Source: a bacterium (GTDB taxonomy: Bacteria > UBA8248). Taken from it: 64,000 bases of DNA. Under the pieces are notes generated by a model. That model was not told the DNA's origin. It did not search any database and saw nothing but the letters and a program-made list of their open reading frames with translations. Positions 4,822 through 48,899 of the stretch are shown here, one piece after another (the stretch's first letter is position 1; each line of letters begins with the position of its first letter). Both the position numbers and the translations under genes were made by a program. The stretch lies in contig OZ242260.1 in the NCBI GenBank assembly GCA_965207065.1, positions 1,440,001 through 1,504,000 of the forward strand. The letters run 5' to 3'.

Positions 4822-5721
4822 ATGGCCCTGAAAACCGTTGCCATCATCAGCCCGGGAGATATGGGACATGCGGTTGGGCGAATGCTGGGTTTGCATGGGT
4901 ATGAGGTGATAACTTGTCTCGCAAACAGAAGCGAGCAGACGAAGCGCTTGGCCGCTGAAGGGGGAATTCGGGATTGCCCGACAATGGCCGAAATGCTGGA
5001 GCGCGCGGATATTGTTTTATCCATCGTGCCTCCGGGTTTCGCCACCCAGGCGGCGGACGAAGTGGCGGAATCCATGTCAGAATCTGGCCATTGCCCCCCA
5101 TACGCCGACTGCAACGCAGTGTCGCCGGAAACGGCGAAAGCTATCGCTAAGCAAATCTCAGATGCCGGAGCGGATTTCATCGATGGTGGGATATTAGGCC
5201 CCCCTCCGAGCGAGACGAGGAGCAACACCAGATTTTACTTCAGCGGCGAGCGGGCGGAGTTGCTTGCGGTATTGGATGGCAAGGGGATTGTGGTTCGCTT
5301 GCTCGGAACGGAAATTGGTCGCGCATCTGGAATCAAGATGTGTTACGCAGCCCTTACAAAGGGAACCCATGCTCTTCAAACTGCCGTAATTACTCTGGCC
5401 GAAGCGCTTGGCCTCACCGAAGAAGTAAGTCATGAGTTTCAAACAAGCCAGGAGGCTTCTTATAAACAGATAGCGTCAAGCGCCCCCCGTCTTCCTGTCG
5501 TGGCGTGGCGGTATATCGACGAGATGAAACAAATTGCGCAGACTTTTGAGGCAGCCGGCGTCACGCCGAAGTTTCATGAAGGAGCGGTTGACATCTATAC
5601 CCACCTCGCGACGACTCCTTTGGCGGAGCAAACCCTGGAGAAGAGGGACAAGAGCTTATCTCCACAACAAGCGGCGGCGGTGTACGCAAAACACTTGCCG
5701 ATGAAAATAGACGACAATTGA
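4822..5721 (+). CDS. NAD(P)-dependent beta-hydroxyacid dehydrogenase-like (6PGD NAD-binding + DUF1932)
   Basis: SPGDMGHAVG, DCNAVSP, DGGILGPPP, ASGIKMCYAALTKG, AWRYIDEM; GGAGG RBS. Confidence 0.85.
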   Translation: MALKTVAIISPGDMGHAVGRMLGLHGYEVITCLANRSEQTKRLAAEGGIRDCPTMAEMLERADIVLSIVPPGFATQAADEVAESMSESGHCPPYADCNAVSPETAKAIAKQISDAGADFIDGGILGPPPSETRSNTRFYFSGERAELLAVLDGKGIVVRLLGTEIGRASGIKMCYAALTKGTHALQTAVITLAEALGLTEEVSHEFQTSQEASYKQIASSAPRLPVVAWRYIDEMKQIAQTFEAAGVTPKFHEGAVDIYTHLATTPLAEQTLEKRDKSLSPQQAAAVYAKHLPMKIDDN

Positions 5722-5738
5722 TGTCTTGAGGGAGCGAT

Positions 5739-6410
5739 ATGCCAGAAGACTTATCCACACAAGGACTGGATGTTTTTCCGGAATACAGAAATATGGCGGA
5801 TTTGTTTCGAGAAGAAACGGACGGGCTTCCGCAGGATTTATGGGAATGGAAGCTGCCAGAGAAGAGTTGGGGAGCTTGGTCGATTAAAGAACAAATCAGT
5901 CACACAGCATGGATCCCGTATCTTTTTTTCCTGGAATTCTGGCCCCCCGTTTTGTATCCGGATTCCTTGCCGCGAGATAAATCTCTGGCGGATCAAGGTG
6001 GAGCGGACAGAATGCTCGATCCCGTCCGGTTTCCTGGTGCGTCCGATGTGCTGGCAGCGCTTGATGACGCGTGCGCCTTGTGTCGGGAGGTTTTATCAAG
6101 CGAGACGCTTGCTACGCTAAGAGATAAGGAATTGCCCAGAAAATATTCGCCGGACAGAACGTGGGCAAACGGAGAGCGAGTGATTGATTATTTTCAAAAT
6201 CTTGTTCTGCCTGCTCATGAGACGGGCTTTCGTAAAGACGAAAACGATCCTTATTTGTATTACCAGACGCTTGAGTGCTCTTTCCGCCACATTTTGTGGG
6301 AATCCTATGTGCACCTGATCACCATTCAGGAGTTCAAGCGAATCAAAGGCTTGCCGATTCATTCAACCGTTCCTAGAGACGGATATGCCGCAATGCTCAT
6401 CTGGGAATAA
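5739..6410 (+). CDS. DinB-superfamily-like protein
   Basis: WSIKEQISH ... FRHILWESYVHL. Confidence 0.55.
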   Translation: MPEDLSTQGLDVFPEYRNMADLFREETDGLPQDLWEWKLPEKSWGAWSIKEQISHTAWIPYLFFLEFWPPVLYPDSLPRDKSLADQGGADRMLDPVRFPGASDVLAALDDACALCREVLSSETLATLRDKELPRKYSPDRTWANGERVIDYFQNLVLPAHETGFRKDENDPYLYYQTLECSFRHILWESYVHLITIQEFKRIKGLPIHSTVPRDGYAAMLIWE

Positions 6411-6480
6411 ATGAGTTCATTCCCTCATATTATTTTGTATTCGTAGTTCTGAATCTTCTTTTCCGAAAAGGAGGTTATTC

Positions 6481-8346
6481 ATGACAACTCCTAGCCGGGG
6501 AATAGGTGCGCTGCGTGAGTATTTATATGGTGAAGATATTGGGCAGGCAAAGATAGAGCCTGAAGGCCCGATCATAGTGGGCAGATTGGGGAAGTGGCGC
6601 ATCATCTACGAAGTTGGCCCGCGCGGAATCAAACGCGACGGGGGTCTTCGCTTCACACCGCCGAATGGGTTCACTACGCCCCAATTCAAGGAAATGACAG
6701 ATCCGGGATATTGCAAATTCCGATGTTCGAATGAAGATGTTGTTTTAGTTCCATCATTGGTTGAACCTGTGCTCGGCTATACTTTCCTTCCGGCCAGCCT
6801 GGAATTGAAGGTTCAGAATTCCTCATTGGTGGAAGGTGATTCCATTGAAATCGAATATGGCTGGACGCCATCCGGCATCCCCGGCGTGCAGGCGCAAGCC
6901 TTGTCCATGTCCGTGGAGTTTACTTTATCCATAGATTCGGCTGGAGAAGGAAACTGGGAACTTCTTTCAAATCCTACGATCTTTGATGTACTGCCCGAGG
7001 AGCCATCCTTCCTTTGGGTTACGGGTCCTGCGCAGGTAGTCACAGGAGGGGGCTTTTCCGTCCGGGCGGTAGTTCGAGATTGCTTTCATAACGTTGCGCC
7101 AAAGGGAGCACCAATCCCGAAACTTCAAATGCCTGATGGGAAAACGGAGTCTTTTCGTCAGGAGTCGCCCGGGGTTTTTATCTGTGAAAATGTGGTTTTG
7201 GGAGCGCGGGGCGTTCATCGGCTGAAGGTCTCGGCGGATAGTTTGCCGGCCGTTCATACGCCACCGATCAAGGTGTTGGATGAAACCCCGGAGCGCATGC
7301 TTCTTTTTGGCGACCCGCATTGCATGAGCGGGTTGTGCGTGGGGGAGTACCCGAGACCATCAACCGCGCGTGAAATCGTGGAGTATGTCCACGCCTATGC
7401 GCGGGATTGCGCGGGTGTGGATTTCGCCGCCTGCACTTCTTTGGCCATGCGGATGGATGAAGCGCAATGGAAAGAAGTCACCGAGGCGGCGAATCGTTTT
7501 TCTGAATCTGGGAATTACGTAGCTCTGCCTGCGTATGAATGGTTTGGCATGCTCGAGCAAGACGGGAACAAGAATGTCTATTTCCTGGATGATCAGGATA
7601 TCCCGAAGCTGGACTCCCGCAGTTCCGACTCCGATCATCCGGAAAAGCTCTGGAAACAACTCGAAAAATTCGAGGGCCGCGTGATGACGATTCCCCATCA
7701 CTCGGTGAGTGCTGTGATTGGTACCCGCTGGCGCTGGCACGACCCGAGGTTTCAGCGCCTCGTTGAAATATATTCCTGTTGGGGGAACTCAGAAGCCAAG
7801 GATTGTGAGAGACCATTAGTTAATCCGGCGCGCTATGAAGGACAAAGCGTGCAGGATGCGCTTGAGAAAGGATATCGATTGGGCATCATCGCCGGATCGG
7901 ATACGCATACCTCTCAGCCTGGGTTCTCGAACCGCTTGCGCCTCAAGAATGCCTGGAGAGGCGGATTGGCTTGTGTCTGGGCGGAGACCTTCGATCGGGA
8001 AGGGATATTCAAGGCCCTTTGGGAGCGGCGTTGCTACGGCACGACAGGCGCGCGGATTATTCTTGAATTTTTCCTGAACGATGCGCCAATGGGTTCAGAG
8101 AATAAATTGGATGAATCTGCCAAGAGAAAACTCATGATTCAGGCTGAAGCTTGCTCCCCCGTTCATAAGGTCGTCATCATCAAGAATGCGAGAGAAATTC
8201 ATGTGGCTGAACCGGGGCGGGAGTCGGTCTCTGTTGAGTGGATCGATCCGAGCGGCAGGGAACGAGAATCGGATTATTATTATGTGCGTCTGATACAGGA
8301 CGATGGAGAAATGGCTTGGTCGAGTCCTATCTGGGTGGATGGCTAA
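6481..8346 (+). CDS. DUF3604/PHP-like metallohydrolase
   Basis: FGDPHCMS, AYEW, IPHH, VEIYSCWG, GSDTH, RCYGTTGARI, YYYVRL.Q.DGEMAWSSPIW. Confidence 0.85.
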   Translation: MTTPSRGIGALREYLYGEDIGQAKIEPEGPIIVGRLGKWRIIYEVGPRGIKRDGGLRFTPPNGFTTPQFKEMTDPGYCKFRCSNEDVVLVPSLVEPVLGYTFLPASLELKVQNSSLVEGDSIEIEYGWTPSGIPGVQAQALSMSVEFTLSIDSAGEGNWELLSNPTIFDVLPEEPSFLWVTGPAQVVTGGGFSVRAVVRDCFHNVAPKGAPIPKLQMPDGKTESFRQESPGVFICENVVLGARGVHRLKVSADSLPAVHTPPIKVLDETPERMLLFGDPHCMSGLCVGEYPRPSTAREIVEYVHAYARDCAGVDFAACTSLAMRMDEAQWKEVTEAANRFSESGNYVALPAYEWFGMLEQDGNKNVYFLDDQDIPKLDSRSSDSDHPEKLWKQLEKFEGRVMTIPHHSVSAVIGTRWRWHDPRFQRLVEIYSCWGNSEAKDCERPLVNPARYEGQSVQDALEKGYRLGIIAGSDTHTSQPGFSNRLRLKNAWRGGLACVWAETFDREGIFKALWERRCYGTTGARIILEFFLNDAPMGSENKLDESAKRKLMIQAEACSPVHKVVIIKNAREIHVAEPGRESVSVEWIDPSGRERESDYYYVRLIQDDGEMAWSSPIWVDG

Positions 8347-8358
8347 GAGGGAGCGGTT

Positions 8359-9540
8359 GTGGCGCAAGAAACGGCGGATGCCGTCGTCATAGGTGGTGGT
8401 GTGATGGGATGTTCCATCGCCTATCAGTTGGCGAAACGAGGATTTGGAAAAATTATCCTTTGTGAACGTGATGGCATTGCGTCTGGTTCCACGGGCGGAT
8501 CCTCGGCGCTGATTCGCATGCACTATTCCAATAAAAGCACCATTCAGATGGCTTGGCGGTCCCTGTTGGCGTTTGAGGAATTCGAGGAATATTCCGAGGG
8601 CGGCCAGGCGGGTTTCATGCAAACCGGATACTTGGTGCTGGCGGATGATTCTCTTCGTGATGGTGTGAAAAAGAACGTGGAGCTTGCGCAATCCCTCGGG
8701 ATAGAGACCCGCTGGATAGAAAGAGAGGATATCTCTCGATACGCCCCATGGGCCCAACTGGGTGATGTTGTTGGGGCGGCATACGAACCGAGAAGCGGGT
8801 ATGCGGATCCACATGGAGTGACTTCTGGATTTGCAGAGGGCGCTAAAAAATATGGTGCGCGAATTCGACAGAATTGTCCCGTGATAGGAGTGAATTTCGA
8901 TAACCGTGGACAGGCGCGAGTAGAGACATCTCGGGATGTCATTGAGACCCCGGTAGTTGTAAACGCTTCCGGGGCTTGGGTGAATAAGGTGGCCGCTCTA
9001 AGCGGACACCGATTTCCGGCGGAGGCCATCAGAGAGCAAGATACTGTTTTTGATGCCGTAGGTAGAGATGGCGAGAGGGTTGAAATTGTAGTCTATGATG
9101 GTCCGACACGCTTGTACTTCCGACCGGAAGGGCGAGATTTACTCCTCATAGGCCGCGACAACATAGAACCCGAGTATGTCGACCCGGATGATTTCAACAA
9201 AAAAGAAGACATGGAATTCGTTCTCGATGTTCTGGAGAGGATGCAAAGGCGTTGGCCGGATTTTGAAAATGCGAAACTTTTCCGCGGCTGGGGTTGCTTG
9301 TACTGCATTACGCCTGACTGGATGCCCATTCTTGATTGTCACCCCGAGATTCCGGGCTACTTCATTTGCACTGGTATGAGCGGCCATGGCTTCAAGTTGG
9401 CGCCCGCAGTGGGAGAGATGATGGCGGAGTTGATCATGACCGGAAGTTGCGAGGAGCCTGATATCAGCGACTATCGCCTGACGCGTTTTGATGAAGGCGA
9501 TTTGATGCAAAGTGTTTTCGGAACTGGCTTTCAGGGCTGA
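8359..9540 (+). CDS. FAD-dependent oxidoreductase (sarcosine oxidase beta/DadA family)
   Basis: VIGGGVMG, TPDWMPIL, GMSGHGFKLAPAVG. Confidence 0.9.
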   Translation: MAQETADAVVIGGGVMGCSIAYQLAKRGFGKIILCERDGIASGSTGGSSALIRMHYSNKSTIQMAWRSLLAFEEFEEYSEGGQAGFMQTGYLVLADDSLRDGVKKNVELAQSLGIETRWIEREDISRYAPWAQLGDVVGAAYEPRSGYADPHGVTSGFAEGAKKYGARIRQNCPVIGVNFDNRGQARVETSRDVIETPVVVNASGAWVNKVAALSGHRFPAEAIREQDTVFDAVGRDGERVEIVVYDGPTRLYFRPEGRDLLLIGRDNIEPEYVDPDDFNKKEDMEFVLDVLERMQRRWPDFENAKLFRGWGCLYCITPDWMPILDCHPEIPGYFICTGMSGHGFKLAPAVGEMMAELIMTGSCEEPDISDYRLTRFDEGDLMQSVFGTGFQG

Positions 9541-33933: not shown

Positions 33934-33951
33934 AATTCAGGGCGCAGGTTC

Positions 33952-34587
33952 TCAGGGATTATTCCAAGCTTGAACCACCGAATCGAAATCAACCACACCT
34001 TCGCGCAGGATTATTGGTTTATTCCCTCTCGCGTCCACTACGGTGGAAGGCCGGGTATTCTCTGTTGTTCCACCGTCCAAGACCAGCCCCACCTTGTTTT
34101 GGAATCGAGAAGAAATCGCTTGAGCGTTATGGAGTGGAAGTTCTCCGGATGCGTTCGCGCTCGTCGCCACGAACGGGCCGACTCGCATCGCAAGTATTCG
34201 GCAAAGCGCTTGAGCGGGCATACGCACGGCGACAGAAGCACCGCCTTCGGTGAGCAGGGGAGACAGATTGGGAGTTGCCGGTAAAACCAAAGTCAGACCC
34301 GAGGGCCATAATGAGTCTATCAGGCTGAAAGCTTGCGGAGAAATGTCGCCTGCAAGCCCTTTTAACTGGGAGCGGCAGCCGATGAGAACGGGCGCGCCTT
34401 TCTCGTCTTCTCTTCCCTTTGTTTCGTAGAGTTTCTCGACGGCTTCTTTATCGAGAGCGCTGGCGCATAGGCCATAAATCGTATCCGTGGGCAAAGCGAC
34501 GATGTTTCCAGAATTCAGTTCTTCGCCGGCCTGTCGAATTACTTCTTCTTCTGGTGAACCAGGATTCACCGGGAGGATTCTGCTCAC
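33952..34587 (-). CDS. tsaC: L-threonylcarbamoyladenylate synthase (TsaC/Sua5)
   Basis: PTDTIYGL, KGR, TSAN.SG, PSTVVD, LREG. Confidence 0.92.
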   Translation of the reverse strand: MSRILPVNPGSPEEEVIRQAGEELNSGNIVALPTDTIYGLCASALDKEAVEKLYETKGREDEKGAPVLIGCRSQLKGLAGDISPQAFSLIDSLWPSGLTLVLPATPNLSPLLTEGGASVAVRMPAQALCRILAMRVGPFVATSANASGELPLHNAQAISSRFQNKVGLVLDGGTTENTRPSTVVDARGNKPIILREGVVDFDSVVQAWNNP

Positions 34588-34590
34588 CGT

Positions 34591-35220
34591 CTATTTTTTC
34601 CGGTACGTTCTTTTGGCGCGACTACGCTTGGGCCTTGATTTCTGGCCTGTACTTTTTTTGGTTTCATTTTGTGGTTGTTTCGCGCCGTCTTTTTGCGCTT
34701 GGGCGGGCAGAGGGGAAATTTCTTTCTGGAGCGCGGCGTCCGCGGCCAGAACCTTCTCTGTTTGTTGTTGCGCGAAACGCCGGTATTCCTTCGCGAGTTT
34801 CTGATCGGTCAAGGCGAGTATCCGGGCGGCGTGGAGGGCCGCGTTCCTGGCGCCCGGGCCACCAATCCCCATCGTCGCCACGGGTATGCCGGGGGGCATC
34901 TGCACCGTGGAGAGAAGAGAATCGAGGCCGCCAAGGGAGGAACTGTCGATGGGAACGCCTATCACGGGCAGGTCCGTCGCGGCTCCGACGACGCCCGCCA
35001 GGTGCGCCGACATGCCTGCGCCCGCGATCAGCACCCGGATTCCGCGCTCGGGGGCATTTTTCACATACTCATGAACGGCGTCAGGCGTGCGGTGGGCCGA
35101 TAAGATTCTCATTTCAGAGGGAATGTTGAAGGTTTCGAGCGCCTTCGTGGCTTCTTCCATCACCGGTTTATCCGATGCGCTTCCCATCAGTATCCCGACC
35201 AGGGGTGCTCTCGTGGCCAA
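34591..35220 (-). CDS. purE: N5-CAIR mutase
   Basis: MGSASD, SAHRTP, AGMSAHL.G, PVIGVP, VQMPPGIPVAT. Confidence 0.95.
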   Translation of the reverse strand: MATRAPLVGILMGSASDKPVMEEATKALETFNIPSEMRILSAHRTPDAVHEYVKNAPERGIRVLIAGAGMSAHLAGVVGAATDLPVIGVPIDSSSLGGLDSLLSTVQMPPGIPVATMGIGGPGARNAALHAARILALTDQKLAKEYRRFAQQQTEKVLAADAALQKEISPLPAQAQKDGAKQPQNETKKSTGQKSRPKRSRAKRTYRKK

Positions 35221-35248
35221 AAAAGATTCTCCTCTTGATATTGGGCGC

Positions 35249-35638
35249 TTATTTTGGGATGAACGCGAGCAGTTCGATTTCGAGCTTCGCGCCCGCGATG
35301 ATTTTCGCCGCCTGGAAAGTCGTTCGCGCCGGGGGATCTTCCGTCCCGAAGTATTCCTCGAATACGGCGTTCATGTCCCCCAGATCCGCCAGATCTTCCA
35401 TGAAAATGGTCACTTTCACGGCGTTTTTGAGCGATGTGCCGCCCGCCTCGCATACGGCCTTGAGGTTCTCGATAATCTGCCGCGTCTGTTCGGCGACGCC
35501 GCCCGGAACCAGTGCTCCCGTCGCGGGGTCGAGGGGCAACTGCCCCGAGCAGTGGAGCCACTCCCCCACCTGAATGGCCTGGGAGAGCGGTACCTTGCCG
35601 GATGCGGCCTTGTCTGTATGAACCACTCTTTTTTCCAT
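35249..35638 (-). CDS. RidA/YjgF family protein
   Basis: SQAI, SGQLP.DP, N.V...YF, PART, EIE. Confidence 0.9.
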   Translation of the reverse strand: MEKRVVHTDKAASGKVPLSQAIQVGEWLHCSGQLPLDPATGALVPGGVAEQTRQIIENLKAVCEAGGTSLKNAVKVTIFMEDLADLGDMNAVFEEYFGTEDPPARTTFQAAKIIAGAKLEIELLAFIPK

Positions 35639-36281
35639 TGTAGCTCCCCGGTGGTGCATATGTGACGCCCCATCAAAACACAAAACGAGGCCTGTGGGTA
35701 TCTTTCGCGCCATGTTTCGGAGGCTGTGCTATAAGTCATATTTTATCAAACGGTTGCGGTGGATTCCTGTTCGCTCCAAAGGCGCCGCGCCGCGCAGATT
35801 CCCCCAATTGCCGCTTCAGGCGCGCCGCCGGGGACGCGGTATCCTCGCAATGCTTCTGCGGGAGTGAGATTTTCGACCCCGCAGTTCCCCGCATTTCCCG
35901 TCACCGCCGGACCCCCGGGTCATGGCAGAATCTTCCTGCGCATCGCTTCTGCGGCGCCTTTTCCCAAGAAAATAAATTCCCATCAATTTATCGAATAACC
36001 CCGTGAATTTATCGAATTTTATCGATATATCCAGAATATAAAAATTAAATTATTGTTTTTAAGCTAGTTACAAATTCATTAAAATAATTGTAATCAAAAC
36101 GCAAGCTGGTTCATTACAACTACAGCGTATGCGGGCGGGTCCGTGTCGGGTTAACCATGGTAAGCGTTCGGCGGGAGGGTGATGGATGTCAACAAAGCAG
36201 GGTTCCAAACCAATTGCACCGTACTAAATCAACAAATGCTTCCGTTGTCAGAGACAATCTCACCGCTTAACCGAACGCTTA

Positions 36282-38310
36282 TTGCGCCAGGCTAAGCCCT
36301 GGAGAGGAGGATGCCATGACCTGAAACCTCTCGTAGCGACCCAGCGGGTTCGACTCCCGCCCGGCAAAGGCGAAGCCGGCCAGCCGGAAGCGAGTCTTGC
36401 ATGGCGTGCGGCAACGCCCGTCGTGAAGCGTAGACAGCAGGTGACGAAGCGGCGGGGTAAGCCTCGAAATCGGTGAATCGACGACGCCTTCACTGTTAAG
36501 CGTGTGGGGGCAGCACCGGAAGCGCCGCCATCGGCGAGGCGCAACGGGTCGTCCGGGGTCGTGGACCGGCGCAAAGTTACGGGGATGGGTCGCCAGGGAA
36601 CCTGGGAGATCCTGCTCTTGCCCGTGGGCAAGAATGCTGGAAAGGGGACGGCCAGCGTGAACAATCCAGACCCCGGTCCGTCGCCGGACCTGCACGGCGG
36701 CGGGAGCGCCCCATGGCGGACACGAACCCGGCAGGCGCCCGCGGAACCGGCTGGCGAAAACAATAAGCCGAAGGACATGCGAGGGCAGGAAGTCGTAGCG
36801 CCCTGATAGTACCGCTGAAGGCGGGGAACCGTGGCCACCGGGACCCGCTGGAGGGAAGCGGGGCGTCATCTGTACAGAGCCACTGATGGGAAACGCTGGA
36901 GGAAACTCTGAGTTCCACGAACACGTACACGAAACAGCAGTGGATAGCCAAACAGGCGAGGGAGCATCCGGAGCGGGTGTTCACGTCCCTGCACCACCTC
37001 ATCGACGGCGAGTGGATGCGCGAAGCGTATCGCCGCACGCGCAAGGATGGGGCGAGGGGTATCGACGGCGTGAGCGCCGCCGACTACGAGAAGGACCTGG
37101 AGGTGAATCTTGACGACCTCCTGAGCCGGATGAAGTCGGGTCGATACTTTGCGCCGCCGGTGCGTCGGCACTACATCCCGAAGGCGGACGGCACGAAACG
37201 ACCGCTCGGCATTCCGACGTTCGAAGACAAGGTGGCGCAGCGGGCAATCCTGATGCTGCTGGAGCCGATTTACGAGACGGACTTCCTGACGTGCTCGTAC
37301 GGCTTCCGGCCCGGACGGTCGGCTCACGATGCCCTGGCCGCACTTCGCACGGGCATCATCGAGCAGCGCCAACGGTGGGTGATTGACGCCGATATCTCGA
37401 GGTACTTCGACTCGATATCGCACACCCACCTGCGGTCATTCCTCGACCTGCGGATCAAGGACGGCGTCGTAAGGCGCATGATTGACAAATGGCTGAAAGC
37501 GGGGGTTCTCGAAGAGGGAACCGTGCACAGGCCGGTCACCGGCACTCCCCAAGGCGGGGTAATCTCGCCGATGCTCTCCAACATCTTCCTGCACCATGTG
37601 CTGGATAAGTGGTTCGAGGAAGTGGCGAGGCCGCGCTTGCGCGGAAACTGCCAGCTGGTGCGATTCGCCGACGACTTTGTCGTCGCCCTGGAAGACCGTC
37701 ACAGCGGCAAGCGGTTGCTTGACCTGCTGGACAAACGTCTCGGCCGATTCGGACTCACGCTCCATGAGGCCAAGACGCGCTATGTGGACTTCCGCCGGAG
37801 GCGTCCCTACGGGCGTCACTGGATGGCGTCGACCACGACGTTCGACTTCCTCGGCTTCACCCACGTCTGGGGGCGGTCGATGCAAGGCAAGGACGTCGTT
37901 CGCCAAATCACGGCGAAAGGCCGCTTCGCCCGCGCGCTGAAATCGGTGCACGAATGGTGCAAGAAAAACCGGCACCTGCCGATTAAGGCGCAGCATGACC
38001 ATCTCGTCCGGGCGATACGAGGCCACTGCGCATATTACGGTCTGAGGGGGAACGGCAAACGTCTTCGGTGGTTCCGCTACCAGGTGGCTCGCACGTGGCG
38101 GAAGTGGCTTGCGCGCCGCAACCGCCTGCGTCGCATGAACCGGGACTGGATGAACGCGCTCCTCATGCGATACCCCCTTCCATATGTCTCTTACGCGCGC
38201 TCACGGCAAAGCTTCCTGAGCGAACCTGTCGGGTGAGGAACCGAGTGCGTCAATCGCGCACGCTCGGGTCTGTGGGGGGCGGGGCGCAGAAATGCCCCCG
38301 CCTACCCGGC
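36282..38310 (+). mobile_element. Group II intron, full length
   Basis: 5' TTGCGCC; domain V at about 38238-38270; domain VI ending ..CTACCCGGC; encloses an RT ORF; loop TAAGCGT (36497-36503) is complementary to the 5' exon end ACGCTTA. Confidence 0.9.
36896..38236 (+). CDS. ltrA: Group II intron reverse transcriptase/maturase, no HNH endonuclease domain
   Basis: IPK.DG..RPLGIP, SYGFRPGRS, GTPQGGVISP, RFADD, FDFLGF. Frame is open from CTG 36896 (GTG 36977 in the ORF track). Confidence 0.93.
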   Translation: MEETLSSTNTYTKQQWIAKQAREHPERVFTSLHHLIDGEWMREAYRRTRKDGARGIDGVSAADYEKDLEVNLDDLLSRMKSGRYFAPPVRRHYIPKADGTKRPLGIPTFEDKVAQRAILMLLEPIYETDFLTCSYGFRPGRSAHDALAALRTGIIEQRQRWVIDADISRYFDSISHTHLRSFLDLRIKDGVVRRMIDKWLKAGVLEEGTVHRPVTGTPQGGVISPMLSNIFLHHVLDKWFEEVARPRLRGNCQLVRFADDFVVALEDRHSGKRLLDLLDKRLGRFGLTLHEAKTRYVDFRRRRPYGRHWMASTTTFDFLGFTHVWGRSMQGKDVVRQITAKGRFARALKSVHEWCKKNRHLPIKAQHDHLVRAIRGHCAYYGLRGNGKRLRWFRYQVARTWRKWLARRNRLRRMNRDWMNALLMRYPLPYVSYARSRQSFLSEPVG

Positions 38311-38320
38311 CTAACCATGG

Positions 38321-39496
38321 GTAACCATTCGTTCGTAGGGTGATGGGGGCTGTTTCAGCGGTTGAGGACTTGCTTCCAGTTGTTGCGGAGGGGCTTTAGC
38401 CAGATGTCCTTTCTGGGTTTGTCGTGGCGATTGTACCTGTCGTATCGTCCGCGTCCCTGTGTGGTTCCCACATGGATCCATCCCGATGCCCTGTAGACGG
38501 CGCCGGTGTAGCGGGGCGTCTCGACGAAGGTTTCGATGAGAACGGGGGTCGTGTTGTAGCGTTCGGTCCAGTCTTTGGGCAGGCGCCTGCGGACGATGGC
38601 GAGGAGGTGCGAGCCGAGGTTGGGGATCTTGATCCATGGCAGGATGAGGAACCTCGGGTTGTCGACCACGAGGGGGAGGTTCTTCTCGCGCAGCCCGGGC
38701 GTCCAGCCGATGAAGGCATCGCGCGGAGCGAGCTTCCACGCGGCGGTGGAGAAGCCGAGCATGGCGAGGGGCCTGCCGTCGCGGTCGTGGACGGCGTAGC
38801 GCATCTGGGCGCCGACGAGGGTCTTGTAGCCGAGGTAATGGTAGCGGACGACGAACTCGTTCCAGAGCCTGCCCTCGCGGGTTCCGCGCACGACGACGCG
38901 CATATCGAGCGTGCGTACCTCATCGAGGGTCTCAGGCGCCGGGATGAGGGGCGCTTCGGTGTCGGGTCCGAAGACGATCGGCCCGGGCCGGTTCTGGCGC
39001 CACTTCGGAGGCGGCAGCGTGATCAGGCCGTCCTTGTGCATGGCGAGCATGGTCACCCGGGCCATCATGTCCTTGAGTCCGCCGTCGGGTTTGAACCAGC
39101 CGATGCGGCGGCAGAACTCCTTCGATAGCGCATGGCGGTTGAGCGCAGGAGGACCGGCGATCAGTTCGCGCAGAAGCGCCATCTCTTCCGTCGTGAAGTC
39201 GCGCCCGTAGTAGCGGCACTCGATCACGGCGTCATCCCGGCGCCGTGAGGGCGCGCCTGCGCTCGGCGCTCATCGACCAGGGCAGCCACGCGGAGAGGTC
39301 CCCGGGCGCCCGGCCGCCGATCTGCGCGCAGGCGGTGAGCCATGCATCGAGCCAGCGGAGCGGGTCGATGCCGTTCGAGGAGAGTGTGCCGAGGACCGAG
39401 TACATCATTGCCGTGAACCCGGCGCCGGCCTCGCTGTCGGAGCCGAACGAGAGGCGCCTGCCGATCACGGGACCCCGAAGCGCGCGTTCGGCGGCG
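38321..39496 (-). mobile_element. 3' half of an IS66-like element (transposase C-terminus + DUF4338 gene + GTAA terminal repeat)
   Basis: End GTAACCATTCG..GGTGATGG at 38321; transposase tail NAAERALRGPVIGRRLSFGS..LPW ends at 39232. Confidence 0.8.
38355..39227 (-). CDS. DUF4338 (DruA-like domain) protein
   Basis: YHYLGY..LVG..MRY, RD.FIGW, N.RFLILPW....NLGSH.L, ETFV, G..YRA..W..VG.T.GRGR.D. Confidence 0.85.
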   Translation of the reverse strand: MIECRYYGRDFTTEEMALLRELIAGPPALNRHALSKEFCRRIGWFKPDGGLKDMMARVTMLAMHKDGLITLPPPKWRQNRPGPIVFGPDTEAPLIPAPETLDEVRTLDMRVVVRGTREGRLWNEFVVRYHYLGYKTLVGAQMRYAVHDRDGRPLAMLGFSTAAWKLAPRDAFIGWTPGLREKNLPLVVDNPRFLILPWIKIPNLGSHLLAIVRRRLPKDWTERYNTTPVLIETFVETPRYTGAVYRASGWIHVGTTQGRGRYDRYNRHDKPRKDIWLKPLRNNWKQVLNR

Positions 39497-39606
39497 TTAT
39501 GCCGATATCGGCATAACCAATCTAATGCCGCTAACCGGATTATGCCGCGTTCGTCTTCGAACCCCTTGATTCCGCTCACTTGCGCTCTCGCTTTGTCGGC
39601 ATAATC
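39497..39606. repeat. RIT left inverted repeat with palindrome TTATGCCGATATCGGCATAA
   Basis: Near-perfect reverse complement of 42899-43008; repeated T(T/A)ATGCCG motifs. Confidence 0.9.
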
Positions 39607-40600
39607 ACAGCCTCTCCAGATAGTCGAGCAAGGCGTCGGATGGCCGGTATCGACCGGGCGGAACGTCTAGCGGCCTGGTTCTTTCCATTGCCTTTTCCTT
39701 CACACGGAGGTCGGCGTGCAGGTAGACGCGGGTGGTCTCGACCGATTCGTGACCGAGCCAGAGCGCGATGACGGTGCAACCGACGCCTCGATACAGAAGC
39801 TCCATCGCCGCGGTGTGGCGCAGGGAGTGGGGGCTCACGCGCTTGCCCTCGAGGGTCGGACACCCTCGGGAGGCCAGCGCCGCGTATTTCCTGACGATGC
39901 GCTCGACGGCGTCACGGCTGAGAGGCCTGTTGCGGTTGCTCGGGAACAGCGGCTGATCGTCCGTACCGCCCCGCTCGGCCAGCCACGCGCGCAGGAGCGC
40001 CACCGTGTCTGCCCTGAGCGGGGTCGAGCGCTCCTTTCTTCCCTTGCCGCGGCACCGCACGTGGGCGCCCGCGCCGAGAACGACGTCGCCGCGGCGCAGG
40101 GCGATCAGCTCCGAGACCCTGACTCCGGTCTGCACGCACAGATGGAGAAGGGTCCTGTCCCGCCGTCCGTACCAGGTCGAGGGGTCGGGCGCGGCGAGGA
40201 GCGCCTCGGTCTGCTCGCGGTTCAGGTAGTCGAGTACGCGCTTCTCGCTGCGCTTCGCGGGAAGGGCGAGCACCCGCTGGCAATGGTGCAGGAGTTGCGG
40301 CTCGCTGATGGCGACGTACCGGAAGAACGAGCGGATCGCGGCCAGTCTTGTGTTGCGGCTGCGGGCGCTGTTGCCCCGCGAGGCCTCCACGAAGTCGAGG
40401 AAGCGCCCGACGAGGTCGGCATCGATATCGCTCACCAGCAGATCGGTCGGCCGGCGGCCGAGACGCTCCCCGGCGAAGTTCAGCATCAGCCGGAAGGTGT
40501 CCCGGTAGCTCGCTACCGTATTGACGCTGGCCGCCATCTGGCCGAGGAGGCGTTCGGTGAAGAAGCGTTGCACGAAGGCCGGAAGCGGATGCGTTGTCAT
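39605..40600 (-). CDS. Tyrosine recombinase RitC
   Basis: TG.RVSE, GKGRKER, SPHSLRHT.A, LGH, Y. Confidence 0.9.
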   Translation of the reverse strand: MTTHPLPAFVQRFFTERLLGQMAASVNTVASYRDTFRLMLNFAGERLGRRPTDLLVSDIDADLVGRFLDFVEASRGNSARSRNTRLAAIRSFFRYVAISEPQLLHHCQRVLALPAKRSEKRVLDYLNREQTEALLAAPDPSTWYGRRDRTLLHLCVQTGVRVSELIALRRGDVVLGAGAHVRCRGKGRKERSTPLRADTVALLRAWLAERGGTDDQPLFPSNRNRPLSRDAVERIVRKYAALASRGCPTLEGKRVSPHSLRHTAAMELLYRGVGCTVIALWLGHESVETTRVYLHADLRVKEKAMERTRPLDVPPGRYRPSDALLDYLERL

Positions 40601-41539
40601 GACGCTTCCCCCTCTGTGAAGGAACGCTCGCCGCGCTCCGTGGCCAGGCGCAGGAGTTCGGGCACCGCCTCGATGTACCAGTAGGTTCCCGCGGGGTCCG
40701 TATGACCGAGCCAGGTGCTGAGCTTGTACATCTCCCGGTCGGGGTCGCATCCCGAGCGGAACCACTCGAGGATCGTCATCGAGGCCATGGTGTGGCGCAG
40801 GTCGTGGATCCGGGGACCGCGCCCGCGCCCTGCCTGTCGCTTTCGAAGGCCGACGTCCTTGCCGACGACGGCAAAGGCGTGTCCGGCGATCTTGATGTTG
40901 AGCCGGCGCTCGTTCTCGCCGACGAAGAACGCCTCCGACACTCTCCCGAGGATGCGGTCACGCCGGGCGCGATAGGCGCGCAGACGCTCCGCTGTGCACT
41001 CCGTGAAGGGAACGAAGCGGCTCATTCCTTTCTTGTCTCCCCTGACGCGCAGGACGGCCGCGTCGGTATCGACGTCTGTGTCATCGAGCCCGACCGCTTC
41101 TCCGATCCGCAGTCCGGTGACCGCGACCAGGCCGAACAGGGTCGCATAGGTGGCGCCGCGCAATCCCCGCCGCGACTTCAATCGTGTGGCTGCTCTCACG
41201 ATTGCGGCGATCTCCTCTTCGGTATAGATGTAGGGCCGCAGGCGCCGTTGCCGGTGCGGGATCAGGCCCTTGGGCGGGACTTCCGTCCGCGGGTCAATGA
41301 CCCTGGAGCCAGAACGCGAAGCCGCGCACCACCGAGAGGCGGATCGCCCAGGTGTGCGTGGAGCCCGCGCCGAAGCGGTTTTTCCAGCGTAGGAACAGAT
41401 CGGCGGTGATCCGTTCATCGCCCTCGGCATCGGCGAAGGTGGCGAACGGACGCAGGATGAGGCCGCCCGAGGCGGGGTTGCCGCCATAGCGGCGGCGCTC
41501 GGCGAGGTAGTGGTCGAGCAATTCCGTGAACGTTCTCAT
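40597..41539 (-). pseudogene. Tyrosine recombinase RitB, frameshifted near 41300
   Basis: N-terminus MRTFTELLDHYL..WLQG continues in another frame as IDPRTEVPP..PYIY..TGLRIGEA..HDLRHT..LGH..TYWY. Confidence 0.85.
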
Positions 41540-42750
41540 CGGGCGCCTCCCTGTAGCGGCCATGGCCTGGCGAGCGGACGCAGGGCCTCGACGTCGTAGC
41601 GGGCGTAAATCGTGGTCGTGGCGCGTCTGCGGTGCCGAAGGACGTCGCCGATATCGTCGAGCGACGCGCCCCGGTCCAGCATGTCGACGGCGAGCGAGTG
41701 GCGCAGCAGGTGGCCTCGGACCTCGCCCCTGGGCGGGCGCAGCTCCGTTTTCTCGAAGGCCTGGCGGAGAATGCGCCGGACGACCAGGGATGAGCCGAAC
41801 GGCCGGTAAGGGGCCTTGGCGGTGACGAACAGGTGGCGCGCGCCGCCCGCGCGCGCGCCCTGAAGATAGCCGGCGATCGCCTCTCCCACGTCCACGGGAA
41901 TCGGCATGCACTCATGCTGTTCGCCCTTGCCGCGGACCAGTATCTCTCCGGCCCGCCAGTCGATGTCCTCGAGCCGGATCGCAATCACCTCCTGCGCGCG
42001 AAGGCCGAGCCGGGCCATCAGCAGCACGATGGCGTAGTCGCGGCGGCCGGTCCCGGCGCGGCCGCGGACTGCGTCGATGAGGCGCCGGACCTCACCGGGT
42101 TCCAGATGGCGCGCCAGGGCGCCGGCGCGCGGCCCGGAGACCCTCGGAACGCAACTTCTCAGGTCGCGCCGGATACTGCCCGTTGCGAACAGGAAGCCGA
42201 ACATGCTGCGCAGGCACATCGCCTTGTAGACGCGGTTCGTCCTGCCGGTTGCCGGATCGGGCGAATCGAGGAAAGCCGCGACGTCGTCGCGCGTGATGGC
42301 GTTCAAGTCACCGGGTTGCGTACCGAACCGGAAGGTCAGGAATCGCCTCAGCACATTCTGGCGAATCGAGACGGTCTTCGGGGCGAGTCCGCGTTGCCGG
42401 CGAAGCCAGTCTCCGTACGCCAGGCTCAGTTCATCGAGCGGCCCGGGTTCCCGTGGCGCCGTTTGACGGGGCGCCGCCGCCACGCCGGCATCGATCAGAT
42501 GCCCGATGAACCGCGCGATGAGTCGCTCCCGCTGCCGTGTCACGGCAAGTTCAACGCAGACGTCCACGGAAGCGGGGTCGCGATCATGGACCCGTGCGCA
42601 GAACCAGTCGACGGCGCACCGGTAATCATCGACCGTCTTGGCGGCGTAACCGAGGCTGCGTAACTCTGCCAGGAACGCGTCGCGATGAGGCGCCAGCCGG
42701 CCGGGGCCGCCCGGCGCCGAAGATGTTTCACGATTGAGGCTGGAAGACAT
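41536..42750 (-). CDS. Tyrosine recombinase RitA
   Basis: RDYA, LGLRA.E, GKG, HLLRHSLA, LRH, TT.IYA. Confidence 0.9.
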   Translation of the reverse strand: MSSSLNRETSSAPGGPGRLAPHRDAFLAELRSLGYAAKTVDDYRCAVDWFCARVHDRDPASVDVCVELAVTRQRERLIARFIGHLIDAGVAAAPRQTAPREPGPLDELSLAYGDWLRRQRGLAPKTVSIRQNVLRRFLTFRFGTQPGDLNAITRDDVAAFLDSPDPATGRTNRVYKAMCLRSMFGFLFATGSIRRDLRSCVPRVSGPRAGALARHLEPGEVRRLIDAVRGRAGTGRRDYAIVLLMARLGLRAQEVIAIRLEDIDWRAGEILVRGKGEQHECMPIPVDVGEAIAGYLQGARAGGARHLFVTAKAPYRPFGSSLVVRRILRQAFEKTELRPPRGEVRGHLLRHSLAVDMLDRGASLDDIGDVLRHRRRATTTIYARYDVEALRPLARPWPLQGGAR

Positions 42751-42898
42751 GTGCCGCTCCTTTCCCTGTAAGGTGGATGGAGCGAACGAGCATCGGCCAA
42801 TCCGGCGTCCGCTTCCAGATCGTCGATTGGGAAATCGCCCGGGTATCGCCGTGCGAGCGAACTCTCCGCGTGCTAAAAACAGGTTCAGGGATGCTCCC

Positions 42899-43008
42899 GA
42901 TTATGCCGACAAAGCGAGAGCGCAAGTGAGCGGAATCAAGGGGTTCGAAGACGAACGCGGCATAATCCGGTTAGCGGCATTAATGGCATTATGCCGATAT
43001 CGGCATAA
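42899..43008. repeat. RIT right inverted repeat
   Basis: Mirror of 39497-39606; palindrome at 42989-43008. Confidence 0.9.
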
Positions 43009-44186
43009 CGCCAGGGAACGGGCGATCCGCGGGCCGGCCATCGGGCGCCGATTGAGCTTCGGTTCCAACAGCGAGGACGGCGCGAAGTTCACCGCCACCA
43101 TGTACTCCGTCATCGGCACGCTCTCGATGAACGGCATCGACGTGCCGCGCTGGCTGGAGGCATGGTTGGACGCCTGCGCGAAGAATGGCGGCAAACCGCC
43201 GGACGACCTGTCCCCTTGGCTGCCCTGGACGATGAGCGACGCGCGCAGGCGCAAGTTCACGGCGCAGGAATGACCGGCGCCATCGAGTGCCGGTACCACG
43301 GGCGCGACTTCACCACCGATGAGATGGCGCTGCTGCGCGCCCTGATCGCCGCCGATCCACAGCCGACCCGCGCCGCCCTGTCCAGAGAGTTCTGCCGGCG
43401 TATCGGCTGGCTCAAGCCCGACGGCGGCCTCAAGGACATGATGGCCAAGGTGACCATGCTCGCCATGCACCGCGACGGCGTGATCGCCCTGCCGCCGCCG
43501 AGGGGCAGGCAGGGCCGGCCCAAGCCCATCGTCTTCGGGCCTGACACCGAGCAGCCGCTGTTCCCCGCGCCGAGGACACTCGACGAGGTTCGCCCGCTCG
43601 ACTTCCGCACCGTCGTGCGCAATACCCGGGAAGGCAGGCTCTGGAACGAGTTCGTCGCCCGCTACCACTACCTCGGCTACAAACGCCTGGTCGGCGCCCA
43701 GATGCGCTACGCCGTCCATGACCGAAACGGCTGGCCCGTCGCCATGCTCGGCTTCTCCACCGCCGCATGGAAGCTCGCCCCGCGCGACCGCTTCATCGGA
43801 TGGACGCCCGAGATGCGCGAGAAGAATCTGCTGCTGGTGGTGGACAACCCGCGCTTCCTGATCCTGCCATGGATCAAGATCCCCAACCTCGGCTCCCACC
43901 TCCTCGCCATCGTGCGCCGTCGCCTGCCCCGCGACTGGACCGCGCGCTAAAACGTCACCCCGGTGATCATCGAGACTTTCGTCGAGACCCCGCGCTACAC
44001 CGGCGCGGTCTACCGCGCCTCGGGCTGGACCCGCGTCGGGACCACCCAGGGGCGCGGGCGCTACGACACCCACATGAAGCGGGCGGAGCCCAGGAAGGAC
44101 ATCTGGCTGCGGCCGCTGAGACGAGACTGGAAGCGAACGCTCAATCGCTGAAATCACCATCCATCACCTGAGAACGGAAGCATTAC
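43009..44186 (+). mobile_element. 3' half of a second, divergent IS66-like element (transposase C-terminus + DUF4338 + terminal repeat)
   Basis: NARERAIRGPAIGRRLSFGS..LPW ends at 43273; end CCATCACC..CATTAC at 44161-44186. Confidence 0.8.
43270..44151 (+). pseudogene. DUF4338 protein with in-frame TAA at 43948-43950
   Basis: Colinear with 38355-39227; TAA sits where the paralog has Tyr. Confidence 0.85.
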
Positions 44187-45480
44187 CCTCCTCGCCATGG
44201 CCACACCGCTCATGGGCCGCGACCACCACGTCACGTGCGTGCATCGTCTTCAGCCCGTTCGCCTTCTCGATCGGCAACGCATCGGGGGCGGGGAAGTTGG
44301 TCATTTAGGCCCGGATCGCGTAGGCGGGCCTGCCGTTTGCGGCCGCGAGTTCTCCCTCACCCAGGCCCAGCGACCCGGGGATGACGCGCCGGGTCACCAC
44401 GTAGCGGATCACGTGATGCGGCAGCGAGCGGCGACACTCCGACGAGACGTAGGGAAGCTCGGCGCATTCGAGTTTCGGCTTGTCCGGCCCCGCCGCACCG
44501 ACCCCCGTCTCGGCCGGCGCCGCCACCGGCTGCCAGGCATCGTCCGTGAGCCGCGCCACCTCCGCCATCAGCTGCGCCGAGCGTGTCGCGCCGCAGATCA
44601 GCCCGATGGTCCCGAACCGACGGGTCCCCTCGCTACGGAAGCCAGGGTCGTTGCAGGTGCGGATCACGTCGTCCTGATAGCCCGCCCCGTCGGTGCGCAG
44701 CGTGACCCGGCGGACATCCCCGGGCGGCTGCAACAGGGTCTCCCGGAGTGCGCGCTCGTTGTCGAGCTTCGCCGGCACGTTGCCGTCACGGCTCTCCAGC
44801 CACGGCACCATCCCGATCTCGGGACAGAAGGCGACCAGCGGGTGGTAGCCCCGCTCGCCCGGAACCAGACCCTCCGCCGCGCGGTAGGTATACAGGCACT
44901 CGCGCTTGCCGGACGCGATGATCGTCGCATCGAGGTCGATGGTCAGCGCGACCGCGCCCGCCTCGCGCACCCCTTCCGCCATTAGACGCCGGCCCACCTC
45001 GCGGAACAGTTCGTGGCGCTCGGTGTGCGCCGGGATGAAGGCCGTGCCCTTCTCGCGCTCGACGTCATGCACCCCCGCGATATGGAACCGGTCGAGCCAG
45101 TCGCGCAGCGAGCGCGCCGAGGGAAAGCAGCGCTCGCGTCCGCCCCGGAACCGCCTGGCGATGGCGCGCCGCGACAGCCCCAGCAGCTTCGGCTCGAAGC
45201 GACCGAGCATCGCGCAAAGCCCCGCATCGACCTCCAGATGCTCGATGTCCGACACCCGGTCGAACCCGGTGACGTTGAGAACCAGTACCGCGAGGATCAT
45301 CTGCGCGTCGCTCCAGCCTTGCGCCGGGCTGCCGCCTGTGCATGGGAGGCCAATCAGGATGCGCTTCGCCGCCAGCACTTCGAACAGCAACACCAGCCCG
45401 CCGCGTGCCGTCGCGGCCGCGCCCTCCCGAGACACTTCGAGCTTGCTCGGAGAGCGATAAGGCTGTACCATGGTCTTCAC
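44187..45480 (-). pseudogene. IS1380-family transposase, with nonsense codon and truncated by the IS66 end
   Basis: T..GGL, DLDAT, GYHPL, R.GN, RTDGAGY; TAA at 44305-44307, then MTNF..ERCGHGEE cut at 44187. Confidence 0.8.
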
Positions 45481-45625
45481 TCGGCTGGTGACGCCCCAAG
45501 GGGCGGGTTAGAGGCACTAACCCATCGTAAGCAATGGCCCAGCCGGGCACTCACCCTTTTCTGCTCGCCGATCGGGGCTTCGGTTGGTATATGTTAAAGA
45601 TGGGCTAACCACGGGAGAAAGACGC

Positions 45626-46528
45626 ATGGCATACCTAAATGGACAATCGGGGCGAGCCGCGATGCAGGCGGTTGTCGCCGCGTCCGCCCTGTTAATTCTT
45701 GCTTCCTGCGGAGGCGGTGGTGGGGACAGAAACAGCGGCCCTGCTTCCTTTCCAACTTCCAGCAGCATCCAAGTTCTGACCAACTCGCAACCTCCGCAAG
45801 AAACACCGGCCGATGTTTCGTCAAGGCTGGCGGAGGTTATTTCCCGAATGGACTCCTTGTTCGCCTCAACATGGTTCGAACAACCACGTGAACCGTCTGC
45901 TTCAACGCTCAGTGTCCCATCATCATGTGACGGGACAACATGCAGGTTTGAGCCACAAACCGGGGGTTCGGTCACTTACGACCAGAACAATATCGAGTAC
46001 GACCCCACGACGAACAAAACCGTTCTCAGCAAGCATGGAATTACCATTACTAGGGCCGGGGCAAGTTACGGATCCTTGATGAACCACAGCCTGTTTTCAA
46101 TTTTAAGCGATGATAATGGGGAAGCCAATGCCTTGCGCCGTTTCTCTTATGCTGGCGGGGACCTGACGGGATCACGGCCAAGCGCATCCGCCACTTGGCA
46201 CGGAATCATGGTAGGAGTTCCGATTGCCGCTCCCGGGCGCAACGATTTCCTGCAAGGGGACGCAATCCTAACCTACGACTTCTCGGGAAGTTCTCTTGAT
46301 GCGTCGTTCACCAACATCAAGGACATCACGAGGAATCGTGATCACTCTGTCCCCAGCGTCCGGTTCCCTGATGTTCCTGTAGCTTCGAGCGGGACATTTC
46401 AGTTTCAGGACGGGACAAAGGGGAACCGCATTCAGGGTGGGTTTTACGGCCCCGGACATACCGAGACGGCGGGCACCTTCGAGCGGTCGGGCATCGTCGG
46501 TTCTTTCGGAGCCAAACATCGGCCCTAA
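45626..46528 (+). CDS. Surface lipoprotein with TbpB-like C-terminal beta-barrel
   Basis: Lipobox LASC-GGGGG; ATW.G.M.G ... GGFYGP...AGTF...GSFGAK. Confidence 0.75.
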   Translation: MAYLNGQSGRAAMQAVVAASALLILASCGGGGGDRNSGPASFPTSSSIQVLTNSQPPQETPADVSSRLAEVISRMDSLFASTWFEQPREPSASTLSVPSSCDGTTCRFEPQTGGSVTYDQNNIEYDPTTNKTVLSKHGITITRAGASYGSLMNHSLFSILSDDNGEANALRRFSYAGGDLTGSRPSASATWHGIMVGVPIAAPGRNDFLQGDAILTYDFSGSSLDASFTNIKDITRNRDHSVPSVRFPDVPVASSGTFQFQDGTKGNRIQGGFYGPGHTETAGTFERSGIVGSFGAKHRP

Positions 46529-48674: not shown

Positions 48675-48899
48675 AGTTCCATCCAATGCGAAACATCATC
48701 AAAACTGCGTTTTCGCGAAAAAAGTATCATGCACCAGAATAACAATCAATATAATATGTAACAAAACAAAGATATTATTCATGTTTTGTTACATATTATA
48801 TCATCGCTCACGGTCGGCACCCAAGACACTCCGGCATACTCCGCAAATTCGAGAATGGGCAAATACGTCGGCGGAAGACCGCCATCCCCTAGAGCAATG

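Follow-up and report, generated by a model that had tools for sequence, protein, structure and literature searches.

Here we describe a 5.9-kb structure at positions 38321-44186 of a 64,000-nucleotide window (the whole stretch of DNA that was analysed, i.e., positions 1440001-1504000 of contig OZ242260.1, assembly GCA_965207065.1) from a bacterium of the GTDB lineage UBA8248, whose genome is stated to be complete and consists of a single contig of 4,476,866 bp. The structure is built around a RIT element, that is, a trio of overlapping tyrosine-recombinase genes (ritA, ritB and ritC) between inverted repeats, which is joined on both sides to the 3' half of an insertion sequence (IS) of the IS66 family with a DruA-like (DUF4338) gene behind its transposase (hereafter IS66-DruA; arm a on the left, arm b on the right). 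Read from the left, the order is IS66 end, druA-a, IS66a 3' piece, a 6-mer, a palindrome and another 6-mer, RIT inverted repeat, ritC-ritB-ritA, inverted repeat, again 6-mer, palindrome and 6-mer, IS66b 3' piece, druA-b and a GTAA end (Table 1). This is the mirror arrangement that an earlier note on the window had described, with coordinates that proved right to the base.

Table 1. Features of the mirror structure, with positions in the window
Feature	Positions	Strand	Remarks
Right-end inverted repeat of IS66-DruA element a (GTAA...GGTGATGG)	38321..38346	-	outer end of left arm; comparable ends occur at 36160-36185 and in the intact copy (L001)
druA-like (DUF4338) gene, arm a	38355..39227	-	290 aa, open; Pfam PF14236, E 2.3e-38; 92% identical to the DruA-like gene of the intact copy
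IS66a transposase 3' fragment (residues ~682-770), from the N codon of NAAER	39232..39498	-	96.6% identical to the intact 770-aa protein (tblastn); at nucleotide level, the match to that copy ends at 39500
Left junction	39491..39522	.	outer 6-mer GCGGCG (39491-39496), palindrome (39497-39516), inner 6-mer CCAATC (39517-39522)
RIT inverted repeat, ritC side, 84 nt	39523..39606	.	repeated (T/A)ATGCCG motifs; 84/84 equal to the reverse complement of 42899-42982
ritC	39605..40600	-	331 aa, open; Phage_integrase, E 3.8e-33; best relative 82% identical
ritB	40597..41539	-	broken: 1-base frameshift at about 41297-41300
ritA	41536..42750	-	404 aa, open; Phage_integrase, E 1.6e-22, and two weak N-terminal SAM-like matches
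RIT inverted repeat, ritA side, 84 nt	42899..42982	.	partner of 39523-39606
Right junction	42983..43014	.	inner 6-mer ATGGCA (42983-42988), palindrome (42989-43008), outer 6-mer CGCCAG (43009-43014)
IS66b transposase 3' fragment, from the N codon of NARER	43007..43273	+	70.1% identical to the intact protein over its residues 682-768 (tblastn)
druA-like pseudogene, arm b	43279..44151	+	in-frame TAA at 43948-43950; single-frame 81% alignment to DruA-a over 290 aa; Pfam match on both pieces
Right-end inverted repeat of IS66-DruA element b	44161..44186	+	outer end of right arm

RIT elements are described as about 3.5 kb long, with overlapping ritA-ritB-ritC tyrosine-recombinase genes and flanking inverted repeats (PMC3414803, PMC8138268). 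The window's copy shares the trio (three same-strand Phage_integrase genes by Pfam, with ATGA overlaps at ritA/ritB and ritB/ritC, the ritA stop overlapping the ritB start), the inverted repeats and the palindrome; it differs in that a 20-bp palindrome stands at both ends and in that its flanks are the 3' halves of two different IS66 transposases. A RitA with two N-terminal core-binding (SAM-like) domains is a further RIT trait in Smyshlyaev et al. 2021 (PMC8138268), and the two weak matches in the window's RitA lie at residues 24-62 (E 0.004) and 112-163 (E 6e-5), one of them below the Pfam cut-off. As for ritB, relatives read WLQG(F/I)DPRTEVPP in one frame, whereas the window's copy needs two; related contigs from sequencing runs X1 and X24 have one base fewer at 41299/41300, and those from runs X21 and X23 read as the window does. 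Hence, the genes are not all intact, as they would be in an active RIT. With both transposases truncated, and because ritB is frameshifted and druA-b carries an in-frame stop, the locus is a fossil that now does nothing of its own, a decayed scar that likely has no present function.

The inverted arms (38339-39606 vs. 42899-44168) are 80.5% identical over 1274 nt, and the sole intact element of their type in the genome lies at 2289491-2292632, where a 770-aa transposase (DDE_Tnp_IS66 profile positions 2-282 of 284, E 2.3e-53) is followed by a DruA-like gene. Each arm retains the C-terminal 87-89 residues of such a transposase. These fragments were identified through the intact copy together with a weak profile match, that is, they are not called at the strict Pfam cut-off (E<=0.01) but match DDE_Tnp_IS66 positions 256-282 of 284 at a loose threshold (E 0.017 and 0.072). 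The intact gene reads ...PTDNNAIERVLRG, and the arms open with N-A-A-E-R (a) and N-A-R-E-R (b); since homology to the intact gene begins on each side at the N codon of NNAIER (39496-39498, minus strand, and 43007-43009, plus strand), both arms are cut at one and the same codon. Beyond the fragments, each arm passes through its PF14236 gene to an end reading GTAACC... at 38321 and GTAATG... at 44186 (minus strand). Ends that begin with GTAA are an ISfinder trait of the IS66 family; the elements of the arms share these ends and the DDE_Tnp_IS66 transposase with the family, and differ from it in having a DruA-like gene after the transposase, no tnpA/tnpB-like open reading frames and, in the window, only the last ~89 transposase codons. 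The 8-nt outer flanks are unlike each other (AACCATGG vs. CCTCCTCG), i.e., there is no direct target duplication.

These data agree with what the earlier note had claimed about the arms, namely that they are clearly diverged, that both RIT ends run into the same IS66 codon in opposite orientations, that each side continues through a DUF4338 gene to a GTAA end, that the outer ends share no target duplication and that neither 5' half is present (no 5' half cut at this codon occurs anywhere in the 4.48-Mb genome). Its description of the RIT ends themselves holds in part: the junction is at that codon, but what had been called an inverted repeat running straight into it consists, at each end, of the 84-nt repeat, a 6-nt spacer and a 20-nt perfect palindrome, and the palindrome had been overlooked.

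Target codon and end palindrome of the RIT lineage

RitC relatives were sought in a scan of one genome per species; 340 were confirmed and the best 80 were kept as loci (given here L numbers), in which RitA and RitB matches precede RitC wherever the contig reaches. The closest relatives, L003, L004 and L005 (82, 81 and 78% RitC identity), all adjoin IS66 at the N-x-x-E-R codon. L003 and L004 are plain insertions, with IS66 5' half, RIT, palindrome and IS66 3' half in one orientation, the gene reading ...T-N-N before the element and (P/A)-A-E-R after it; the 5' half of L003 covers DDE_Tnp_IS66 positions 2-259 of 284 (vs. 256-282 for the window's fragments), and L004 has a DruA-like gene beyond its 3' half. 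L005 has one readable end, an IS66 5' half ending in ...T-N-N. A scan of metagenome contigs for the palindrome followed by N-x-x-E-R returned five exact matches (two IS66 junctions, two chance matches and one unclear case), and the two junctions place the palindrome beside N-x-A-E-R, L084 with and L087 without a RIT repeat next to it. An uninterrupted related site, ...D-N-N-A-I-E-R-V-L, lies at a loose contig end of run X1. Judged from these sequences, the window's RIT lineage inserts at N-N-A-x-E-R codons of IS66-family transposases. That is, the targeting proposed in the earlier note, together with the survey of RIT flanks it had called for, found a clear answer in the closest relatives (3 of 3 with RitC identity >=77%) and in the two metagenomic junctions.

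The choice of target follows the RIT lineage. While IS66 is the target in the window and in L003-L005, L006 and L007 stand in an rve-type transposase gene (a weak Pfam rve match, putatively IstA of IS21) and L010 in a Mu-like rve transposase gene; most of L014-L068 interrupt the H-E-x-x-H codons of ArdC-type zincin genes, and L071-L082 interrupt codons H-x-(L/F)-R-H, assigned by eye as those found in tyrosine recombinases. The window's genome also holds a second RIT family (33938-37164, 902839-906446, 1150945-1154171 and 2323488-2326714) with a variant palindrome, GTTATGCCGAGCTCGGCATAAC; its four copies are all plain insertions, three in G-V-Q-G-Y-A / G-x-G-K-T codons of genes that look relaxase-like by eye and one in a gene that, likewise by eye, looks Toprim-like. 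More RIT families are present at 1516228-1519300, 2334109-2337181 and 3140776-3143875.

The palindrome (TTATGCCGATATCGGCATAA, hereafter PAL) is perfect over its 20 bp at both ends of the window's RIT and is conserved across the RIT family, in which the end repeats of relatives measure about 30-114 nt, except for the two mirror cases L057 and L054 discussed below. In L003 and L004, it stands on the 3'-half side only. L004, for instance, reads ...ACAA CGCCGC, then the element from inverted repeat to inverted repeat, then GCGGCG PAL CGCCGC CGAG..., i.e., one 6-mer occurs three times, flanking PAL left and right and standing at the junction that lacks it. Both ends could be read in 31 of the 80 loci, and PAL was present at one end in 25 of these, at both ends in two (L053 and L075) and at neither end in four (L008, L054, L057 and L082); the automatic count was 26/1/4, and L053 was reassigned because a scaffold N gap duplicates the start of its repeat and PAL is visible outside the gap. 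In some copies PAL is on the ritA side and in others on the ritC side. Where PAL stood at one end (25 loci), the junction without PAL had a 6-mer identical to the outer one in 14 cases and to the inner one in 10 (mean identity of 5.08/6 and 4.72/6, respectively). For comparison, a classical tyrosine-recombinase attachment site has inverted binding arms around an overlap of 6-8 bp, which both junctions repeat once integration has taken place. The 6-mer outside PAL is sometimes unlike the target's own. In L071 and L072, which come from one genome, the inner and outer 6-mers (GCGCCA and CAGGCA) are swapped, as if the element had used its other core to move and had taken the previous 6-mer with it.

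A normal insertion consists of 5' half, 6-mer, the element from inverted repeat to inverted repeat, 6-mer, PAL, 6-mer and 3' half, PAL thus being the mark of one end. From these junctions, we infer a core-site model. The excised circle would hold inverted repeat, 6-mer, PAL, 6-mer and inverted repeat, which amounts to a pair of core sites placed back to back, with a 6-bp crossover between inverted ATGCCG-type arms in each of them. Either core may meet the target, and PAL would be found on the ritA or the ritC side because either is usable.

Mirror forms and the origin of the locus

Since PAL stands at both of its ends, the window's RIT is of the two-PAL class, and counterparts exist in other genomes. 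L053 has PAL at both ends between two 3' halves of zincin/ArdC-like genes (Pfam MPTase-PolyVal 51-126 of 126), and L054, on the same contig 29 kb away and with its RIT in the same orientation, has no PAL and lies between two 5' halves (ArdcN and MPTase 2-56). Compared with plain insertions into the same genes (L042 for one gene; L038, L043, L051 and L058 for the other), the halves are paired as B3'-PAL-RIT-PAL-A3 ... A5-RIT-B5'. Two copies of a mobile element that recombine with each other can give cointegrates, inversions and hybrid junctions, and the arrangement of L053/L054 is the layout that a cointegrate of two plain insertions would have: recombination between the RIT copies may have fused a circle with A5-RIT-PAL-A3 to a replicon in which B5-RIT-PAL-B3 had the opposite relative orientation. 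Such RIT products can be recognised as two-PAL and no-PAL forms with mirrored gene halves, given the symmetry of the RIT ends and the presence of PAL at one of them. The remaining cases are L075 with two 3' halves, L082 with two 5' halves, and L057, whose 5' halves are 95% identical over 435 nt; L008 has PAL at neither end with flanks alike over only ~21 nt, and was left unclassified. The recurrent mirror class, together with the reciprocal pair L053/L054, is what is new here.

Taken together, the window's locus very likely arose by RIT-linked recombination at two IS66 sites and, in the fuller formulation, is probably a fossil rearrangement junction left by RIT recombination at two IS66 targets. 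Since two PALs are present, one per event, two integration events are needed on any route. On the route to which we give about an even chance, a RIT would have visited two IS66-DruA elements, the resident a and the foreign b, in opposite orientations relative to the transposase gene; the two copies would then have recombined, either homologously within the 3.3-kb body or site-specifically at the ends, into 3'a-PAL-RIT-PAL-3'b, and the 5'-RIT-5' junction and the intervening DNA would later have been lost. As to what is resident and what is foreign, 40 related genomes, 22 of them of the same genus, were compared. Arm a looks resident, and the RIT and arm b look foreign, because none of the 40 holds the RIT body or a b-type arm while matches to arm a abound; the long matches (85-92%) found in many of them are to arm a only.

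Several findings weigh against this scenario. The inner 6-mers of the window, read from PAL inward (TGCCAT and CCAATC), match neither each other nor the outer ones (CGCCAG and CGCCGC), which is not what the simplest model predicts. Unlike inner 6-mers also occur in 15 of the 25 ordinary insertions, and TGCCAT matches CGCCAT of the intact resident copy at 5 of 6 positions. The 5'-RIT-5' product, a second RIT copy and a 5' half cut at the codon are all absent from the 4.48-Mb genome, and because of this the event is not reconstructable at the locus. Likewise, no second RIT copy was found in the assemblies of L057, L075, L082 and L008. Finally, the passages on RIT in PMC10214605 and PMC3414803 report no RIT for which transposition, a circle or a cleavage site has been shown experimentally. 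The reciprocal product that the earlier note had expected (RIT between two IS66 5' halves) was sought by searching the whole genome with the sequence of 36001-46000 (blastn) and with the intact IS66 protein (tblastn); no second RIT of this type and no b-type IS66 came to light. Hence, its proposal of recombination between two insertions stands in kind, with L053/L054 holding both reciprocal forms, but finds at this locus neither a reciprocal product nor a second RIT.

Given that four mirror-type genomes are without a second copy, a route with one resident copy has to be reckoned with. Under this alternative, which we consider rather unlikely, a core of one inserted RIT would have reacted with an empty second IS66, giving 5'-RIT-5' and an orphan 3'a-PAL-3'b; the orphan PAL would offer a perfect half-site that a circle later entered, with no homologous recombination of two resident copies. 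The single-copy mirror forms in four other genomes speak for it, as do L087, where PAL adjoins an IS66 3' half and the other side shows no RIT repeat, and the differing inner and outer 6-mers of the window, as separate events would write them. However, it too needs two integrations, plus a circle donor that is no longer present, and in L053/L054, where alone both products are visible, each junction holds a RIT and there is no orphan PAL.

The other explanations fare much worse. A functional composite transposon, mobilised in trans by the intact IS66 transposase encoded at 2.29 Mb, is a very unlikely reading of the 5.9-kb block, even though two inverted GTAA...GGTGATGG ends bound it and an intact 770-aa type-a transposase is present in the genome. 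The block is single-copy in the genome and absent from all 40 relatives, its 8-nt flanks differ, its two right ends belong to elements only 80% alike, its cargo is decayed (broken ritB and druA-b), and IS66 3' halves on both sides were seen in 0 of the 80 related RIT loci; the composite unit bounded by two IS66 right ends that the earlier note had suggested is thus not upheld. An assembly artefact, i.e., a foldback or chimeric join in the long-read assembly, is more improbable still. Admittedly, marker genes indicate 4.95% contamination in this single-contig genome and no examined contig spans the whole structure, but the arms of a foldback would be identical while those of the window disagree at about 20% of positions, the left junction (39424-39606) is crossed with no mismatch by a short-read contig of run X23, X21 and X23 match the RIT body at 100% (runs that may be of the source sample and hence not independent), and the same architecture is found in L053 and L075. 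Finally, that the arms are native long terminal repeats of the RIT, as their direct, inverted contact with the RIT repeats might suggest, is scarcely credible given end repeats of about 30-114 nt rather than 1.27 kb in relatives other than the mirror cases L057 and L054, the 93.9% match of arm a and the neighbouring intron to the resident IS66-DruA locus, which ends exactly at the codon, and the 5' half on the other side in L003 and L004.

Genomic setting and neighbouring mobile DNA

The mirror lies at the left edge of an 82-kb variable segment full of mobile DNA, a synteny break and hot spot. In relative G012, window position ~36025 is joined to genome position 1558.0 kb, the 82-kb segment 1476025-1558018 being absent there. 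G014, the closest relative by the left flank, carries 265 nt of an IS66a transposase at the corresponding position, with neither a RIT nor PAL; what adjoins its PurE/RidA-side flank on the right corresponds to 2.2618-2.2653 Mb in the window's genome, 0.79 Mb away. No pre-rearrangement state was recovered from synteny with the relatives, these two included.

Beyond these copies, the genome searches found a single further IS66 piece, at 1531361-1531825, which covers residues 1-191 of the 5' side with 58% identity to type a. It follows the 3' part of an IS1380-family gene on the plus strand, 47 kb to the right of the mirror (L088 4354-6068, i.e., genome 1530354-1532068). Its orientation would fit the lost 5'b half but its cut is at a different place, and a link cannot be shown. 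The IS1380-like gene at 44305-45480 of the window is unique in the genome, and a search for its missing 3' part, which the earlier note had also proposed, came back empty. The L088 IS1380 piece was considered as this missing half and rejected; its profile coordinates overlap those of the window gene (DDE_Tnp_1_4 188-433 vs. 6-238 of 435) and it therefore belongs to a different element.

A group II intron (36270-38311, with an RVT_1 gene at 36977-38236) stops 9 nt outside the IS66a right end. The same spacing is found at the intact copy (L001 about 5140-9330), the two loci being 93.9% identical across intron and IS; in the window this match covers the 3' part of the intron and arm a (37556-39500) and then ends. 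At least six further copies of the intron are present in the genome, and its position beside IS66 ends reflects either homing there or co-duplication. The reverse-transcriptase gene of the intron beside the intact IS66 is split by an insert (L001 about 6400-8640, genome 2286400-2288640) that, by eye, encodes a large serine recombinase. To the left of the window's intron, a second IS66-like end at 36152-36185 (TAACCATGG followed by GTAAGCG...GGTGATGG), with an unrecognisable body, repeats the 9-nt-plus-end arrangement of 38312-38346. A DruA-like (DUF4338, Druantia) gene regularly follows a single-ORF (one open reading frame) IS66-family transposase (window 38355-39227, L001 9488-10315, L004 2348-3202 and L008 1004-1873), and several genomes of the genus hold multiple copies of the pair (seven long matches in G013); it is puzzling that an insertion sequence should have a defence-system domain as its standard passenger. 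Further to the right, an AT-rich gap contains an inverted repeat, itself AT-rich, with perfect 20-nt arms around a 13-nt loop (48749-48801).

Relation to known systems and broader meaning

The inverted repeat with an overlapping palindrome, as well as a RIT inside a Tn6049-like transposase gene, were described by Van Houdt et al. 2012 (PMC3414803), where mobility is given as undemonstrated, and the table of a 2023 paper (PMC10214605) lists the target specificity and movement of RIT as not tested; another study (PMC5737581) reports a mobilome signal for RIT and, in its part on these elements, no circles. Our full-text literature search, which covered main texts, returned no paper with RIT target rules, crossover sites or mirror products. 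A further comparison is with Tn554 and the SEs, tyrosine-recombinase transposons that leave a 6-bp donor footprint to one side of the new site (PMC10214605), to which the 6-mers of RIT are similar (L071/L072). Their gene sets (TnpABC and IntA-Tfp-IntB-Srap) are unlike that of RIT, and the account of them in PMC10214605 describes no end palindrome or double core.

A broader model, which we hold tentatively and would place somewhat short of an even chance, is that RITs are parasites of other mobile elements in which the symmetric double core (inverted repeat, 6-mer, PAL, 6-mer, inverted repeat) sets the target. Each lineage would home to a conserved codon block in a key gene of another element (proposed here as NNAxER of IS66, IS21-like and Mu-like transposases, the ArdC-type HExxH, the tyrosine-recombinase HxxRH and a relaxase P-loop), and both live cores may join targets, the window being a foreign IS66b stitched to a resident IS66a. 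Joining two targets in this way would fuse or invert replicons and leave, as footprints, a two-PAL 3'-RIT-3' and a no-PAL 5'-RIT-5' form.

RIT elements are widespread over the bacterial phyla while, according to the same accounts, their movement has never been reproduced (PMC10214605, PMC3414803). The junctions described here, together with the plain insertions of relatives, lead to a testable model, with a 6-bp crossover by the palindrome, homing by lineage and a predictable mirror pair of products. If the model is true, mirror forms could serve to trace the replicon fusions and inversions that a genome has undergone, and RITs would act as agents that disable and recombine other mobile elements.

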